This document shows positions 2,303 to 30,024 of a DNA stretch of 64,000 nt, one piece after another (the stretch's first letter is position 1; each line of letters opens with the position of its first letter). The DNA comes from Shigella phage SSP1. The position numbers were made by a program, and so were the translations under genes. The notes under the pieces were generated by a model. The model did not search any database. It was not told the origin of the DNA and saw nothing but the letters and a program-made list of their open reading frames with translations. Location of the stretch: the sequence record KY963424. One strand, given 5' to 3'.

Positions 2303-2360
2303 TGTTATATTTTGAAGTTCGCCCACATTAAGTTAATTTAAAAGACTTAATGGAGGTAAT

Positions 2361-2756
2361 ATGAGCCGTACATATCGTAAACAATCTGGTGATCGTCACT
2401 GGCGTGATGCACATCGTTCTACTTATAATTTTCATAGCACTAATATCCGTATTCCGTATATCTACACGGATAGGGATGGTAAGCAGTGGAAGTATTATCA
2501 AGTTCGATCCAATGAAGCATGGGCTAAAACTTGGGATGAAATTGAGAAGGAGATTCAGGAAAATATCATCCGTAACGAGAAGAAAGATGGGCACTGGTGG
2601 GATTCTGTTAGTAGGAATGTTAAGTGGCATTCTAACAAAATGGTTCGTCAAGGAAACCGTCGCGAACTTCATCGTGTGATGAAAGATCCAGAAAATTACG
2701 ACTATAATCGCGATCATGATCTGCGTAAGCGTGGGTTATGGTGGTGCTACGACTAA
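2361..2756 (+). CDS. hypothetical basic protein
   Basis: ORF with RBS GGAGG; Trp/Arg-rich. Confidence 0.5.
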   Translation: MSRTYRKQSGDRHWRDAHRSTYNFHSTNIRIPYIYTDRDGKQWKYYQVRSNEAWAKTWDEIEKEIQENIIRNEKKDGHWWDSVSRNVKWHSNKMVRQGNRRELHRVMKDPENYDYNRDHDLRKRGLWWCYD

Positions 2757-2773
2757 TTTCGTAAATAATTCAT

Positions 2774-2802
2774 TTGCTAAAACCCTCTCCTTTTGATATA
2801 AT
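2774..2802 (+). promoter_or_regulatory. T5 early-type promoter (TTGCTA-N17-TATAAT)
   Basis: -35 2774-2779, -10 2797-2802, conserved leader ATAAATTGATGAGAGGG. Confidence 0.75.
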
Positions 2803-2832
2803 ATTTATATAAATTGATGAGAGGGCTTTGAA

Positions 2833-3105
2833 ATGAAAGAAGCAGAAATTAATGAAATGGCTAGAGTATTCATCGTTTCCTATATGCAAGGCAGTTGCAA
2901 TAGTTTATTCGAGTCCGCTGTAGTATTTCAGGAAATGTTAGCCGAAAAAGGCGTACATATGGAAGATACTGAAATTGAAGATCTTCTAATGGAAACTTGT
3001 AGTAGTGCTGAAGTCTTCCAGTGTGGTAACTGTAATTGGTGGTGTCCAGAGCATGATCGTTCTGAAGAAGGTTCCTACTGTTCCGATTGTGAAGGAGAAG
3101 AATAA
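2833..3105 (+). CDS. hypothetical acidic Cys-rich protein
   Basis: ORF downstream of consensus promoter; C-terminal CGNCNWWC..CSDC motif. Confidence 0.55.
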   Translation: MKEAEINEMARVFIVSYMQGSCNSLFESAVVFQEMLAEKGVHMEDTEIEDLLMETCSSAEVFQCGNCNWWCPEHDRSEEGSYCSDCEGEE

Positions 3106-3404
3106 TGAATAAGTTTATTATTGCTCTGGTGATTTCAGCAGTTAGTTTCGGTTCTCTGGCATCTACCAAAGTTTCTATGAAAAATGGTAATGTTAAAGTT
3201 CAACAGAACGGCATTATTACCGAATATGGTAAAGTTCGTGATGTTAAGGAACGTAATGGTAAAGTAGAAATCTATACTAATAAAAACTTCTCTACTCCAG
3301 CCGTTACTATTAGCAAACGCGGTGAAATAACCACTCAACGTACTAATAGCTCCAGTTCTTTTACTTGTCGTTATGATTGCGACTTTGAAGGTGAAGATGA
3401 ATAA
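3105..3404 (+). CDS. putative secreted/periplasmic protein
   Basis: N-terminal signal-peptide-like MNKFIIALVISAVSFGSLAS. Confidence 0.5.
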   Translation: MNKFIIALVISAVSFGSLASTKVSMKNGNVKVQQNGIITEYGKVRDVKERNGKVEIYTNKNFSTPAVTISKRGEITTQRTNSSSSFTCRYDCDFEGEDE

Positions 3405-8375: not shown

Positions 8376-9032
8376 TTGGAAAAGTTCTTACAATTATTAA
8401 CGGTACTGCTCCAAGAAGCGAAAGATCCAGCATCGCTTCTTAAACGTCTGCTAACTATCTTAGTTGCTGTCATTATTTTCTTATTTGTTAGTAATACTAG
8501 TGAGGTGATGTCATTCTTAAAGACTTTCTCCACGTCTGCGGTTCTACAGGATGTTCAAACTCAAAGGATAAGTAATTTTCCTAACGTAGCTAGAGAAAAG
8601 AGCATGGTGCTTTTTTCCCAAACGGGTGCGGATGCTGTTTTTGTCGTAAAGTATAAACCCGATGCCGTTAATGATTATTCTAACATTATTGCATGGGAAA
8701 GCAATGCGCAATTAGATAGGACTGACTTGGCCGATAAAGCGGTAAATAAAACGTCTGAGCTATATAGACGACACTTAGACGGCTTTAACTACGCATCGGA
8801 CTTAAGTGTAAAAGTAAATAAATACATGGGGTTAAATATACCTGCGTTTAAGAATGTTACTTTTAATTACATATACACTTGTCCGTATTTCAATCTAAAC
8901 AATATCTATGCTGGATATATTGGTATTGCTTGGAAAGATAATCCTGTAGATGCAGCCGATTCTGAGAAATTTAACGAGTACTTAACAAAGCTCTGTTCCC
9001 CACAACAGAGATCTTTAGGTAGATCAATATGA
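8376..9032 (+). CDS. hol: holin (T5-type)
   Basis: 218 aa, N-terminal TM LLKRLLTILVAVIIFLFV, immediately upstream of and coupled to endolysin; TTG start. Confidence 0.7.
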   Translation: MEKFLQLLTVLLQEAKDPASLLKRLLTILVAVIIFLFVSNTSEVMSFLKTFSTSAVLQDVQTQRISNFPNVAREKSMVLFSQTGADAVFVVKYKPDAVNDYSNIIAWESNAQLDRTDLADKAVNKTSELYRRHLDGFNYASDLSVKVNKYMGLNIPAFKNVTFNYIYTCPYFNLNNIYAGYIGIAWKDNPVDAADSEKFNEYLTKLCSPQQRSLGRSI

Positions 9033-9442
9033 GTTTTAAATTTAGTCAAAGAAGTTTAGATAGATTAAAAGGTGTTCATCCAGACTTAGTAAGAGTAACT
9101 CATAGGGCTTTAGAATTAAGCCCGTATGATTTTACGATTACAGAAGGACTTCGTTCTCTAGAGCAAAGTGCTAAGAATATTGCTAATGGAACCTCGTTTT
9201 TAAAAGACCCAAGCAAATCCAAGCATGTTCAAGGTAGGGCGGTAGATTTTGCTCCACTTAAGGATGGAAAGATTGACTGGAATGACCTAGAATCCTTCAA
9301 GTTAGTGGCAGATGCCTTCTTCAAAGCAGCCGAAGAGCTAGGAGTAAAGATTAGATGGGGTGGTGATTGGAACCAAAATGGAAGTTATAAGGATGAAATC
9401 CAACGAGGTACTTTTGACGGACCACACATAGAACTAGTTTAA
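9029..9442 (+). CDS. lys: endolysin, L-alanyl-D-glutamate peptidase (M15 family)
   Basis: 137 aa; ALELSPYDFTITEGLRS..NIANGTSFLKDPSKSKH..DF..DWND matches recalled T5 endolysin. Confidence 0.85.
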   Translation: MSFKFSQRSLDRLKGVHPDLVRVTHRALELSPYDFTITEGLRSLEQSAKNIANGTSFLKDPSKSKHVQGRAVDFAPLKDGKIDWNDLESFKLVADAFFKAAEELGVKIRWGGDWNQNGSYKDEIQRGTFDGPHIELV

Positions 9443-9453
9443 TTAATAACTGA

Positions 9454-9477
9454 GGCGGGAATATTCCCGCCTTTTTA
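9454..9477 (+). terminator. intrinsic terminator
   Basis: Perfect palindrome GGCGGGAAT/ATTCCCGCC followed by TTTTT. Confidence 0.8.
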
Positions 9478-9519
9478 GGCAAAGGGGGCTTTAATAATTT
9501 TTGAAGATAGGAGAAAGCC

Positions 9520-9936
9520 ATGTTTGCAGAACTATTCCTTATGATGCTGCTGGGTATCTGGAAAATAAGTCTAGTAGTATTCGTTTTAATGATAGTCTTT
9601 ACTATCCTTGCATTAACTACCCGAAATAGCTTATTAATAAAGGTTATTCACGGACTAGAGTATATAATTATGGGTTCATTCGGCGTTTGTAAATGCAATT
9701 GCCATAGAGATACGAAATATTGTTGGTTATGGATGGAACTAGAGAATCCTATATCCATAGCTTTGGCTGTTTCATTCGGCATGATTCTTATGGCCCTTAT
9801 TCTAGCATTAATACCTTTGATGTTAGCTGGGGGAGTTACAGCGTATTTCACCCTTTTCTCCCCGATACTTATGTACTCAATTTACCCAATAACTATGTAT
9901 CTAGTTAGGAGAAGATTTATACATGCAGTAGATTAA
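9520..9936 (+). CDS. hypothetical polytopic membrane protein
   Basis: Several hydrophobic segments across 138 aa. Confidence 0.5.
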   Translation: MFAELFLMMLLGIWKISLVVFVLMIVFTILALTTRNSLLIKVIHGLEYIIMGSFGVCKCNCHRDTKYCWLWMELENPISIALAVSFGMILMALILALIPLMLAGGVTAYFTLFSPILMYSIYPITMYLVRRRFIHAVD

Positions 9937-12827: not shown

Positions 12828-12935
12828 GTATATAGCTGAGGCTATTATTAAACGAATCATACAAGCGATAGCGATACTTATAATCATTTGTATTGCTATT
12901 GGTACGGGATTAGGCATTTTAATTAAAAGTTTTAT

Positions 12936-12994: not shown

Positions 12995-13426
12995 ATGAAC
13001 AAAGTTGATAAAGCTCTAGTTTTCGCAGCAGCAGATAAGTTTGAACAAGTTAAGGCAACTTTCCGAACCTTGTTCCAGTCTTACGTTCAGGATAAGTCTA
13101 ATCCTATCTCTGAACGTTTGATGGTCTGGGAATGTCATGCTTGCAATGCCCTATTAATTGCGGATTATCGTAGCGATATAGATAAAAATCTGTGCGAAAT
13201 TCTTATCCCTGAGGAGGCAGAACGTTATCAGTTAATCTCTTTCCAAGATTTGGCGGAGCATATCATTCCTGATGATCTTTGGGATAAATACTACGGTGAT
13301 CCTGAAGATGAGGGAATGACTCCAGAAGCCTGTATTGAGCTGATCTGCAAAGATCATCCTGAAATTGCAGAGAAATTTGAAAAAGTTTTTGCTTCTGAGT
13401 TCTCCGGCGTTGTTAACGATTGGTAA
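12995..13426 (+). CDS. hypothetical acidic protein
   Basis: ORF downstream of promoter. Confidence 0.55.
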   Translation: MNKVDKALVFAAADKFEQVKATFRTLFQSYVQDKSNPISERLMVWECHACNALLIADYRSDIDKNLCEILIPEEAERYQLISFQDLAEHIIPDDLWDKYYGDPEDEGMTPEACIELICKDHPEIAEKFEKVFASEFSGVVNDW

Positions 13427-19261: not shown

Positions 19262-19333
19262 CCTAAGTTTCTAGGAACATATACTAGGCGGTTAATACAG
19301 GGCGGTTATGGGGAGGGCGGTTATTTCTAGACA
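19262..19333 (+). repeat. four direct copies of GGCGGTT(A/C)
   Basis: GGCGGTT at 19263, 19297, 19311, 19326. Confidence 0.7.
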
Positions 19334-19366
19334 ACATTTTTTGAAAACACATTTTCAGAAATTATT

Positions 19367-19972
19367 GTCGGATTTGCACACTGACATAAGTTTAAAAACT
19401 GGTCGGATTTGCACAATTGCCTAAGTTTTTAGGAACATATAATCTCCTGAAAATGCCAGCATTATTTCGGGCCGAAGGCCCATGGTTGCCTGAGTTTTTA
19501 GAGCCACAGAAATTTTCACTTGTCAAGCTATTTTGCCCCATTTAGCAAATAAAATTTTACTTTATCTCCACTAATCTCAAATTAACCCAAATCTTCTCAA
19601 CTCTTCCCCAAAATCCCCACAAATCAGGTGCTCCGCACCAAACATGCGCCCCTCTAGCTTCCCCCCCCCCCCTAATTTTCTCTCGCTCTCTCAACTTCTC
19701 CCCAAACCCACACAATCACACACCCTCTCATCGAAGTCACAAAAATATTCCTGAAACCATAAATCTGTCTCCTAGTAAACTCGTGTCGGATTTGCACATA
19801 CCCCACAGGATTCGAACGCAGTTCGAGATTGCTGGAGTTTTTGGGAAAATTCATTGTCGGATTTGCACACTATAAAAATTTTTCGGGTCGGATTTGCACA
19901 CTACCAAAAATTGTCGGATTCGCACATACACGCCCGCACGTAACACCCGTGGAGCAATGTCGGTTTTGCACA
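19367..19972 (+). repeat. dispersed array of seven copies of 14-mer GTCGGATTTGCACA
   Basis: Exact copies at 19367, 19402, 19785, 19856, 19887; one-mismatch copies at 19913 and 19959; same orientation. Confidence 0.85.
19661..19672 (+). repeat. C12 homopolymer within a G-depleted C/A/T-rich tract
   Basis: Twelve consecutive C; surrounding 19560-19780 has about 6 percent G on + strand. Confidence 0.85.
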
Positions 19973-20002
19973 AAAGCGCAGGGCAATTGCCCTGCGCTAA
20001 AT

Positions 20003-20160
20003 ACGAATGATAATAAGAATCATTCTCATTTAAAAAGCGGAATGAGAATGATAATAATTCGCATTTAGAAAGTGAAATGAGAATCAATCTCATTTAAAAA
20101 GTGGAATGATTCTCATTTAGATAGTGGAATGCAAATGATAATGATTCGCATTTAAGAACG
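20003..20160 (+). repeat. tandem array of degenerate AT-rich palindromic repeats (AATGAGAAT...ATTCTCATT / TGATAAT cores)
   Basis: About five tandem units each ending CATTTA(R)AAAG; extra copy at 20491-20512; resembles Fur-box-like GATAAT arrays. Confidence 0.6.
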
Positions 20161-20161
20161 G

Positions 20162-20295
20162 AAGTGAGAAACACTGTTATTTAAGTTATCCACAGACTTA
20201 TCAACAGCACGATTTGACTTGACAAAACCCTAGCCATTTTGAAGCGTTATTAACAGACTTATCCACAGCTTATCCTACTGTATAAATATACAGTA
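20162..20295 (+). repeat. left arm of about 135-bp imperfect inverted repeat carrying DnaA boxes
   Basis: Reverse complement of 23553-23686 aligns with few mismatches; TTATCCACA at 20186-20194 and 20259-20267, TTATCAACA at 20198-20206. Confidence 0.8.
20276..20295. promoter_or_regulatory. LexA (SOS) box-like palindrome TACTGTATAAATATACAGTA
   Basis: 19 of 20 matches to E. coli LexA consensus TACTGTATATATATACAGTA. Confidence 0.55.
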
Positions 20296-20550
20296 TTCCT
20301 ACGCAGTGAATAATTCTAATATAGCGTTAAAACGCTCTCAAACGCATTCTAACGCGTTTAATTTTGGTGGGGATACTAAATCAAGGGCAAAATTGAAGGA
20401 GGCTTGAAAATTAGTTAGCGCGCTAACGATCACACAAGGCGACACGTAACACCCGAATCATTAGCAGGCTAACCATCGCGGGCGCGGTCAAATGAGAATG
20501 ATTATCATTTGAAAATTGGGGCACTTCCAGATAGTTGCGCCCCGTGATTA

Positions 20551-23552: not shown

Positions 23553-23572
23553 CCCTGTATATTTATACAGTA
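23553..23572. promoter_or_regulatory. LexA box-like palindrome (CTGTATATTTATACAG core)
   Basis: CTGT-N8-ACAG with AT spacer, 17 of 20 to LexA consensus; inverted copy of the site at 20276-20295. Confidence 0.5.
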
Positions 23573-23686
23573 GGATAACCTGTGGATAACTCTGTGTAAA
23601 AGTCCCCATATCGCCGCCTATTGTGTCAAATTATTTTGTGCTGTGGATAACGTTGTGGATAACTTAAATGATAGTGGTTCTCACTT
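23553..23686 (+). repeat. right arm of inverted repeat carrying DnaA boxes
   Basis: TGTGGATAA at 23581-23589, 23642-23650, 23654-23662; reverse complement matches 20162-20295. Confidence 0.8.
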
Positions 23687-25646: not shown

Positions 25647-26054
25647 ATGACTAACGTTAAAGCCGCAAAATTCACCTGGAACGAAGAAAACACCCAAAAA
25701 GCTGTTACCATGTATCAGCAGTTAATCAATGAAAACGGATTAGAATTCGCAAACAGCGACGGCCTGAAAGAGATTGCGAAAGCAGTGGGCGCGACTTCTC
25801 CCGTGTCAGTTCGTTCGAAATTGACCAGCGCGAAAGCCTATCAAAAAAGCGATAAGCCTCGCAAGGTTGGCGGCGGTAGCTCAATCCGCAAGGCTCATTA
25901 TGTGCGAGTAATTGCAAGACACGCCATCGATTCCGGCATTATCAAAGACGCCGATGATCTGGCAAGCCTTGAAAGCGCGAAGCTGGAAACGCTGGACGCC
26001 GTGGCGCAGTTGTTAGGCGTTGCCGATGAGGTGAAACAAGCCGCAGGCGAATAA
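25647..26054 (+). CDS. hypothetical pre-early protein
   Basis: ORF preceded by leader CCTTAAATTAAATTAATTGGAGTTTATATC. Confidence 0.55.
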   Translation: MTNVKAAKFTWNEENTQKAVTMYQQLINENGLEFANSDGLKEIAKAVGATSPVSVRSKLTSAKAYQKSDKPRKVGGGSSIRKAHYVRVIARHAIDSGIIKDADDLASLESAKLETLDAVAQLLGVADEVKQAAGE

Positions 26055-28615: not shown

Positions 28616-29350
28616 ATGAATCAAGTTAAAATGAATATTACCCGTAATTTCCCGCATATTTCCCGCGTCATGATTTGGGATCTGGACGGAACAATCATTA
28701 ATTCATTCCATCGTGTCGCGCCTTGCTTTGATAGCGAGGGTAATTTAGATTTAAATAAGTATAAGAATGAAGCGTGTAAGCATCATTTAATAATGCAAGA
28801 TACCTTATTGCCTTTGGTTGAATATATGCGCCAGTGCATGAATGACGCAAATACTTTAAACATTATTTGTACCGCTCGACTAATGAGCAAATCGGACTAT
28901 TATTATTTGCGCAAACAAGGCTTACGCGGTCGTGGGGATAGTAATATCCGCGTGTTTTCCCGCGATACGCTGCATAAATATTTTGAAGCTGATAAAGTTA
29001 GCGAAATATACCACAGTAAGGACGCAGTTTATAAATCGTATTATTTTGAGCTATTCAAACAACTATATCCGAACGCTGATTTTACAATGATTGATGATCA
29101 TAAAGGTGTATTATCAGCGGCAGCGTCATACGGATTTAAAACGCTGGACGCGCAAGCCGTTAATGATATTCTATCAATCGGCGTGGCATTGATAGGCGGA
29201 ACCTTTATTGATGAATCTCTCGATGATGATAATGATTATCAGTTCCTAGCGGACCGCTTAAAACTATGTTGGGAAAGCATGACCGAAGAAGAACGCGCAG
29301 AATATAGTTGCAGCCCGCAACAATATATTGAGAAATTAAAAGTTGCGTAA
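28616..29350 (+). CDS. dmp: 5-prime-deoxyribonucleotidase (HAD family)
   Basis: 244 aa from ATG 28616 as recalled for T5 Dmp; HAD motif I WDLDGTI. Confidence 0.75.
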   Translation: MNQVKMNITRNFPHISRVMIWDLDGTIINSFHRVAPCFDSEGNLDLNKYKNEACKHHLIMQDTLLPLVEYMRQCMNDANTLNIICTARLMSKSDYYYLRKQGLRGRGDSNIRVFSRDTLHKYFEADKVSEIYHSKDAVYKSYYFELFKQLYPNADFTMIDDHKGVLSAAASYGFKTLDAQAVNDILSIGVALIGGTFIDESLDDDNDYQFLADRLKLCWESMTEEERAEYSCSPQQYIEKLKVA

Positions 29351-29526
29351 TAATTAAAATTGAAATAGTTTCATCCTGTAATTAAAAATGGTTGCAGGGT
29401 GAAACAGTTAGCAGGGTAATAGTCACGGGGGTGGCGGTTAGCAGACTAAGTATTTTCGCCCTAGCCACTGGACTCACCCACGCGTACGTAATCCAAAGAA
29501 TTTGGCAAAAGTCATTTTAGCGCTAA

Positions 29527-30024
29527 TTAATTATGATTTGCAAACTCACCGTGATAGTGCTCCCTGGCTTTTCTAAGTTCTTTTTCAGCCTGCTCAAGAG
29601 TTTTAAAAGTTCCCACGGTAATCCTATTGCCATTTACACGTAATTTTGCTTCGAACTTTTCCTCACCACGTTTATATACTCCCTTAACTCCGGTAGACTC
29701 ATTCTTCCATCCCGAAGAGTTTTTGCCATTCTCTGCATTTGTTGCTTTACGCAGGTTATTCCATCTATTGTTGAAAGGATCTTGATCTTTATGATCAATG
29801 AGAAACTCACTCGGATCTTCTCCTGTCATGTATAGATATGCTACCCGATGGGCTTTATATAACCCATTACTGCCCATTGATAGGGATATTCCTGAGCTGT
29901 TTCTACTGCCTGCTGGCTTACCTTTACGACTTCCCGAGTTCCAAGTAAAGATACCAGTTCCAGGATCATAATCAAATTTCTTCTGGTATTCTGCTAAGGG
30001 CAGTAGAGGTTTATGATTTGCCAT
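29527..30024 (-). CDS. HNH homing endonuclease with AP2-like domain
   Basis: AHRVAYLYMTGEDPSEFLIDHKDQDPFNNRWNNLRKATNAEN; 165 aa, paralog of 5634-6131. Confidence 0.75.
   Translation of the reverse strand: MANHKPLLPLAEYQKKFDYDPGTGIFTWNSGSRKGKPAGSRNSSGISLSMGSNGLYKAHRVAYLYMTGEDPSEFLIDHKDQDPFNNRWNNLRKATNAENGKNSSGWKNESTGVKGVYKRGEEKFEAKLRVNGNRITVGTFKTLEQAEKELRKAREHYHGEFANHN

Follow-up and report, generated by a model that had tools for sequence, protein, structure and literature searches.

A tandem palindromic repeat array in the injection-stop region of a T5-like phage resembles strong Fur operators

Introduction

The stop in T5 injection after 8% of the genome has stood as a question since the 1960s. 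The region concerned has been described in a comparison of 25 T5-like phages by Davison, which included 'Repeat Region 3' (10.1101/866236). The order of elements in this region is IRD'-spacer-IRC' (DnaA boxes), DRC with palE/palH/palG/palI interleaved, palJ, and nine DRD; the DnaA-box module has been described for T5-like phages in the same work (10.1101/866236).

The window analysed here is a stretch of 64,000 nucleotides (64 kb) from Shigella phage SSP1 (KY963424). Tandem AT-rich palindromic repeats had been predicted in it at 20003-20160 from the sequence, with a resemblance to the Fur box that might be coincidental. We compared these repeats with the T5 injection-stop signal (iss) region and with the enterobacterial Fur operators.

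Results

Position of the array in the T5-type iss region

The 1.3 kb around the array matched a T5-like Tequintavirus, Salmonella phage Spc35, at 99.2% identity (positions 8479-9774, reverse strand). The match fell within the feature annotated there as the left terminal repeat/first-step-transfer (FST) DNA. The array was located in the non-coding iss region at the inner end of the left terminal repeat, between the pre-early and the early genes. No long or credible ORF was found in the 1.2 kb from 19331 to 20550, and the flanking gene sets converge on this region.

In the T5 record (L015), the stretch collinear with the array is annotated 'injection stop signal' (misc_feature, 2305-3309), and the array aligned directly with it. 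The order of elements in the window was that of Davison's list, reversed: the DnaA boxes, the array, palJ, and seven DRD (Table 1). This collinearity and the shared order identified the array as a previously catalogued element, the T5-type iss palindromic array (Repeat Region 3, DRC1-4 with palE/G/H/I), in which the individual DRC and pal names are assigned by order and position only. The repeats themselves are already known. The T5-type iss context is the main context of the array, and it was missed by the original prediction.

Beyond dmp, the first ORF of 90 aa or more (29527-30024) was encoded by the opposite strand, and the terminal repeat did not recur between the two (29350-29530). This single copy suggested that the assembly of the window joins the genome ends.

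Table 1. Features of the repeat array and of its flanks in the window
Feature	Position	Strand	Sequence and remarks
DRD repeats	19363..19972	+	Seven copies (T)GTCGGATTTGCACA, family D4, on the far side of palJ
palJ	19975..19998		Perfect GC-rich palindrome AGCGCAGGGCAATTGCCCTGCGCT bordering the array; inverted repeat I15
Unit 1	19999..20039		41 bp: AAATACGAATGATAATAAGAATCATTCTCATTT + spacer AAAAAGCG
Unit 2	20040..20074		35 bp: GAATGAGAATGATAATAATTCGCATTT + AGAAAGTG
Unit 3	20075..20103		29 bp: AAATGAGAATCAATCTCATTT + AAAAAGTG
Unit 4	20104..20126		23 bp, minimal unit: GAATGATTCTCATTT + AGATAGTG
Unit 5	20127..20161		35 bp: GAATGCAAATGATAATGATTCGCATTT + AAGAACGG
Junction	20162..20185		AAGTGAGAAACACTGTTATTTAAG, between the array and the first DnaA box
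DnaA-box module (T5 IRC'-spacer-IRD')	20186..20267	+	By pattern search and sequence
LexA (SOS) box-like palindrome	20276..20295		TACTGTATAAATATACAGTA, 19/20 to consensus
Separate palindrome	20488..20512		25 bp: TCAAATGAGAATGATTATCATTTGA, just downstream of the last pre-early ORF

Structure of the repeat units

Direct reading of the sequence bore out the prediction of about five degenerate units, with the true left boundary about 4 bp wider. The five units filled 19999-20161 head to tail, in the order 41, 35, 29, 23 and 35 bp. Each consisted of a palindrome and a near-constant spacer of about 12 bp (TTTAARAAGYG). A unit started with (G/A)AATG, the palindrome was closed by TCATTT or GCATTT, and the spacer AARAAGYG(G) followed. 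The palindrome increased in length by 6-bp steps, which gave the unit lengths of 23, 29, 35 and 41 bp. The outer arms (AATGA...TCATT) and the constant spacer were common to all units, including the 23-mers that are not Fur-like. The two cores quoted in the original prediction were in place, TGATAAT at 20008, 20049 and 20135, and ATTCTCATT at 20022 and 20109.

Tandem Repeats Finder reported overlapping arrays with periods of 35, 29, 23 and 87 (scores 74-229). Repeat finding placed three direct families (D2, D3, D5) on the same bases, together with many inverted pairs (I1-I14).

Folded as single-stranded DNA, the array gave -40 kcal/mol, compared with -16.9 +/- 3.0 kcal/mol for 200 dinucleotide shuffles (z = -7.8). 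On the basis of this value and of its conserved position in five relatives, the array is more than chance.

The fold is also what would be expected if the array acted as a DNA structure, with hairpins or cruciforms beside the nick mechanically stalling the passage through the tail or channel. Every unit is palindromic, the stem is longer in the larger units, and the major nick annotated in T5 is at the edge of the array. On the other hand, the stems are short and AT-rich, and the arms are often imperfect. In Unit 2, AATGAGAAT is paired with ATTCGCATT, and in Unit 5, AATGCAAAT is paired with ATTCGCATT; pairing is therefore not strictly maintained. A structural role would also leave the Fur-specific base pattern unexplained. 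In vitro, T5 ejects the whole genome with no stop at 8%, and therefore DNA alone is insufficient. We consider a purely structural role decidedly unlikely.

Fur-like sites in the array

A symmetric 19-bp Fur matrix was built from 16 promoter regions of E. coli K-12 under Fur control, each of which contributed its best site. (The region taken for the fur gene missed the real box just outside, a small flaw that left the matches unchanged.) The 16 training sites scored 10.5-22.8 bits. The best matches in the 64-kb window were at 20009 (21.8 bits), 20494 (19.1), 20044 (18.8) and 20131 (17.8), and 7 of the 11 matches of at least 14 bits fell inside 19990-20520. The array and the separate copy at 20488-20512 score as high as the strongest operators of E. 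coli. No site reached 14 bits in 74 kb of E. coli DNA that lay outside the training set and served as a control. A second matrix, based on iron boxes from a published list, produced the same top ranking and recovered the E. coli promoters too.

The matches differed between the units. In Unit 1, the top site (20009-20027) was accompanied by weaker matches 6 bp to each side (20003/20009/20015), and by hand count 16/19 positions agreed with the Fur consensus. Unit 2 had two sites 6 bp apart, 20044-20062 with 18.8 bits and 20050-20068 with 13.3 bits, and Unit 5 had 20131-20149 with 17.8 bits and 20137-20155 with 15.0 bits. Unit 3 gave a moderate site at 20073-20091 (14.3 and 10.5 bits at 20073/79). 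Unit 4 was not Fur-like, with no match of at least 10 bits to the 19-mer matrix.

Matches at exact 6-bp offsets (20003/09/15, 20044/50, 20073/79, 20131/37 and 20488/94) are partly due to self-similarity of the matrix. Such offsets are also seen in footprinted Fur clusters (Chen et al. 2007, PMC2189734). The array had the arrangement by which Fur operators are recognized, at least three adjacent NATWAT-type hexamers or 6-bp overlapping sites. The hexamers of the 35- and 41-bp units were laid out forward-forward-x-reverse, as in the Fur box.

Two controls addressed the suggestion that the resemblance was coincidental AT-richness. Permuted-column matrices, which were symmetric and had the same AT preference, palindromy and information, reached the observed values in 0.02-0.1% of trials (p of about 2-5e-4). 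In dinucleotide shuffles, the observed maximum was reached in 0.02% (p <= 2e-4) and the observed count never. The nominal p-values of both controls are weakened by about two orders of magnitude, as one motif was tested among a few hundred known regulators. AT-richness did not explain the scores of the array in either control. The array scored at operator level and such scores were rare in the permuted and shuffled controls, so the matches were above background. The predicted resemblance to the Fur box was thus upheld, and the array holds the best Fur matches of the 64-kb window. By-eye comparison with the motifs of ArgR, PurR, Cra, CRP and IHF found none that fits.

A strong Fur-like site was also present at the 3' codons of dmp (29222-29246), with two overlapping matches of 19.1 and 18.4 bits over GAT/AAT codons (DDDNDYQ). 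These were the only comparable matches elsewhere in the window. Fur-like matches can arise for other reasons, because this coding sequence has one.

The dmp site reached 24.8 bits in phiR201 and IME260, above every E. coli training site. The stretches concerned in relatives are L016 13148-13172, L017 14861-14885, L018 16460-16478, L020 7938-7993 and L079 13429-13447. The site is near the physical left genome end, and in My1 and two Vibrio phages a conserved GGTAATGAGACTnnTTCTC is present just past dmp. The dmp site may be a coding coincidence (DDDNDYQ), or the FST DNA may have a second conserved site at its opposite end.

Another Fur-like pair (12867-12891; 14.2 and 13.7 bits, 6 bp apart) was found in the intergenic gap, 167 bp long, that precedes the ORF at 12995-13426. 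It includes a TATAAT-like hexamer and may simply be an early promoter. The matches at 568 (ORF junction) and 12867 (intergenic) were excluded as parts of the array element.

Variation of the array among T5-like phages

The array was kept in position in T5, phiR201, IME260, My1 and a Proteus phage. Strong Fur-like sites were found in T5 (20.8 bits), Yersinia phage phiR201 (20.1), Klebsiella phage IME260 (19.7) and Pectobacterium phage My1 (21.1). The site in the Proteus phage was weaker (15.5 bits) and was present in three copies in the array.

For the analysis of units, viral contigs were scanned with 15-mers and the junction as the anchor. Many of the contigs recovered were unrelated, and only loci with the palJ motif upstream of the anchor were used. 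This gave 21 distinct T5-like arrays of about 5 to about 11 units each. The unit lengths were almost only 23+6n, namely 23 bp (49 units), 29 bp (11), 35 bp (14) and 41 bp (12). A long unit occupied the terminal (Unit 5) position in the T5-like arrays examined, with the exception of the Proteus phage. The 35- and 41-bp units scored 14-21.8 bits, and the 29-bp units 7-17 bits. The 23-bp units, the commonest class, were not Fur-like (below 5 bits as isolated units without their upstream context).

The consensus of the long units, GCGAATGATAATGATTCGC, matched the Fur consensus at 15/19 positions (column similarity p ~0.001), and the four mismatches were at low-information Fur positions. All 18 natural variants of its core outscored the median random mutant with an equal number of changes. 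The natural variants averaged 16.4 bits, compared with 10.8 bits for AT-biased mutants, none of which reached 16.4 in 5000. The substitutions found in nature were the Fur-tolerated ones (Mann-Whitney p = 6e-4).

These data bear on whether the array has any sequence-specific function. It might be a recombination-prone, AT-rich repeat that drifts, its Fur likeness being a coincidence of hexamer-periodic AAT-rich palindromes. Unit number and order shift fast among close relatives, slippage of a hexamer-periodic sequence would by itself yield 6-bp steps, and the dmp coding sequence of the same genome scores similarly by chance. However, the position of the array is retained across genera in which the neighbouring genes are not conserved, and the permutation, shuffle and mutant-neighbourhood tests all reject an explanation by composition only. 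We give such drift a slight chance.

The Vibrio phages pVp-1 and Chester retain the DnaA and LexA boxes as well as repeats similar to DRD. In place of the array they have unrelated tandem repeats, CTAGCCATCCAGAC / CTAGACTTC (L079 6480-6620, L020 40-160). The box recognised by Fur is the same in Vibrio.

A different repeat at the same position in the Vibrio phages is expected from co-evolution of a repeat with its protein, if the units are sites for a phage-encoded protein and the Fur likeness is incidental. The most obvious candidate would be A2 with A1, and another would be a nicking or packaging protein at palJ and the end of the terminal repeat. An action of A1/A2 on these palindromes has been proposed by Davison (10.1101/866236). 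A2 (25647-26054) falls in phrog_1725, a family of phage 'DNA binding protein', and its place next to A1 is conserved in all T5-like phages compared. It is pre-early, and A1 and A2 are needed to restart DNA transfer. The outer arms and the spacer shared by all units, 23-mers included, would also suit such a protein. Neither A2 nor A1 showed a Pfam domain that indicates DNA specificity.

Against a phage protein, the spacing of the arms ranges from 3 to 21 bp among the units, which a fixed dimer would not tolerate. The match to the Fur matrix and the Fur-tolerated natural variation would be left unexplained. The injection stop occurs without phage protein synthesis, and therefore a pre-early protein cannot establish it. 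Taking both sides together, we regard a phage protein as the intended ligand as rather unlikely.

Coding, promoter and RNA readings

ORFs running across the array were rejected. They cannot be real, because the unit lengths (all 2 mod 3) and the number of units vary among relatives and break any frame.

Promoter-like matches numbered 9, compared with 5.5 +/- 2.5 in shuffles, and none inside the array was above 9/12. One promoter-like site of 10/12 on the minus strand (20341-20313) was not conserved even in T5. Intrinsic terminators inside the array were rejected because of AT-rich stems with no T-run after them. A Fur operator overlaps the -35/-10 of the promoter of a repressed gene; here there were only the weak promoter-like matches, and no downstream gene. 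As there was no convincing overlap with a promoter and the flanking genes converge, the array was not filed as a classical Fur operator.

Rfam gave no family at gathering score. The best match was PrrF at 19969-20105 on the minus strand (29.3 bits against a gathering score of 90, E = 0.014). The sub-threshold minus-strand matches all ended at 19969/70, anchored on the palJ hairpin.

These results weigh on the classical reading, in which the array would be the Fur operator of an iron-responsive phage promoter or of a small RNA ending at palJ. Weak promoter-like hexamers are present in the array on both strands, palJ with its T-run forms a terminator-like end on the minus strand, and PrrF is itself a Fur-controlled small RNA. 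But the promoter-like matches were not above those in shuffles, with a maximum of 9/12, and the PrrF match was far under the gathering score. With about 5 to about 11 units, the length of a transcript would vary, palJ is absent in My1 and degenerate in IME260, and there is no downstream gene either way. A classical operator is thus highly improbable.

Elements flanking the array

A further copy of the repeat had been predicted downstream, and AATGAGAATGATTATCATT was indeed present at 20491-20509, within the separate palindrome. This palindrome had two Fur-like sites 6 bp apart (20488/20494), with 16.7 and 19.1 bits. Compared with the unit reference it had 82% identity, and its complementarity to several of the units was 90%. 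The palindrome and its GC-rich left flank were kept even in Vibrio phage pVp-1 (GCGCGGTCAAATGAGAACTATTCTCATTTAC, 13.5 bits). At the corresponding place in T5, no Fur-like site of at least 13 bits was found.

On the other side, palJ is the homologue of the point annotated in T5 as the 'major DNA single-chain interruption' (2700/2701 of the T5 record; palindrome at 2700-2722). The T5 record ends its terminal-repeat/FST feature at the same nick, beside the GC-rich palindrome. On the minus strand, palJ is followed by TTTTGTG and resembles an intrinsic terminator. It was missing from My1 and degenerate in IME260.

The window, T5, phiR201 and IME260 share the junction, which the Proteus phage retains in part. 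Beyond it, the consensus DnaA box TTATCCACA was found at 20186 and 20259, each with a one-mismatch box 3 bp away (TTATCAACA at 20198 and TTATTAACA at 20247). The DnaA boxes are 25-100 bp from the array, and the DnaA and LexA boxes are all within 130 bp.

In the stop-signal region, 9 bp separate the LexA box from the DnaA boxes. Two LexA-box matches were found in the window, compared with 0.01 expected. The box was kept in T5, phiR201 and IME260; in My1 (CTGG) and the Proteus phage, its core was altered at one or two positions. It was also present in the Vibrio phages Chester and pVp-1. The second box in the window was weaker (23553-23572, 17/20) and was beside the other DnaA-box module (23581-23662).

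The DRD copies straddle the end of the terminal repeat at about 19501, as placed from the Spc35 annotation. Each has a DnaA-box-like 9-mer; the one at 19964 (TTTTGCACA) fits TTWTNCACA exactly, and most of the others (ATTTGCACA) differ from it by one mismatch. The tract at 19560-19740, which lies between the DRD repeats and the terminal-repeat end, was strongly C-rich and strand-asymmetric, with a run of 12 C at about 19664-19675.

Discussion

A possible role for host Fur

The long units of the array could not be distinguished by sequence from strong Fur operators, which gives a concrete and cheaply testable hypothesis. Fur would probably bind a fragment of the array in vitro. That such binding is the selected function has a lower chance. 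As the best, though tentative, reading, we propose that the array may be a Fur landing pad beside the conserved DnaA and LexA boxes. More generally, the arrangement suggests that abundant DNA-binding proteins of the host, already in the cell when no phage gene has yet been expressed, could use the end of the FST DNA as a landing pad.

In the proposed mechanism, the FST DNA (the first 8% of the genome) would enter the cell, and iron-loaded dimers of host Fur would bind the long units. From there Fur would spread cooperatively onto the weaker short units, as it does on hexamer arrays. Fur, DnaA and LexA, all pre-existing host proteins, might then coat the last ~0.5 kb of the FST DNA from their neighbouring boxes. 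Such a complex could mark, anchor or protect the DNA end at the paused channel, and phage protein synthesis would not be needed. The role of the array here would not be that of a promoter operator.

A stronger version would give host Fur, loading with DnaA and LexA, a part in the T5 injection pause as a trans-acting component. Beside the 8% nick, iron-loaded Fur would polymerise over the array and so help to clamp or anchor the DNA as it comes in at the channel exit. We hold this version to be improbable. If it were true, the length or stringency of the first-step pause would depend on the iron (and SOS) state of the host. The receptors of T5-like phages (FhuA, FepA) are themselves Fur-controlled. 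The original prediction had drawn attention to TonB-dependent transporters as receptors of T5-like phages, and their link to the array is thematic only.

Counted against Fur are the lack of a promoter, the 23-bp units that are not Fur-like, and the other repeats in the Vibrio relatives. T5 plates on fur mutants, and therefore Fur cannot be essential.

If Fur does bind, it would be the first host factor tied to the iss region beyond a consensus match, and phage entry would be linked to host iron. If it does not, there must still be an explanation for why a phage repeat mimics a host operator so closely. A literature search found no paper linking T5-like phages with Fur, and the Davison preprint mentions neither Fur/iron nor LexA/SOS (10.1101/866236). 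The tentative Fur reading of the array appears for this reason to be new.

Comparison with known systems

The closest relative of the array is Repeat Region 3 of the T5 iss (Heusterspreute 1987; Wang 2005; 10.1101/866236), which has the same place, neighbours and order and can be aligned with it. The units in the window are 41-35-29-23-35, whereas those in T5 are 41-35-23-23-23-35. The window has in addition the Fur-like palindrome at 20488-20512, for which no counterpart was found in T5.

Plasmid centromere and iteron arrays, such as F sopC, are also tandem units of a short inverted repeat and a spacer in variable copy number. Unlike these, the phage array varies in unit length by 6-bp steps within one array, and its base pattern matches a host regulator. 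We know of no ParB- or Rep-like partner in T5-like phages.

The DnaA-box model of Davison (10.1101/866236) shares with ours the use of pre-existing host DNA-binding proteins on conserved sites at the end of the FST DNA. It names only DnaA, with IHF and Fis as possible, and treats the palindromes as possible A1/A2 cleavage sites (10.1101/866236).

Compared with the Fur operators, the array has no overlapped promoter or regulated gene and is part of the injected DNA of a virulent phage. It also differs from one compact Fur cluster in being five separate palindromes in a tandem repeat with constant spacers. On the other hand, its scores equal those of the best host sites, with overlapping sites 6 bp apart as in the known operators and clusters (PMC2189734). 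Its sites match GATAATGATAATCATTATC at 14-16 of 19 positions, as compared with the enterobacterial operators of iucA, fhuF, ryhB, fhuA and fepA-fes, and the core of the ryhB operator is found in the phage array as an identical 13-mer, AATCATTCTCATT.
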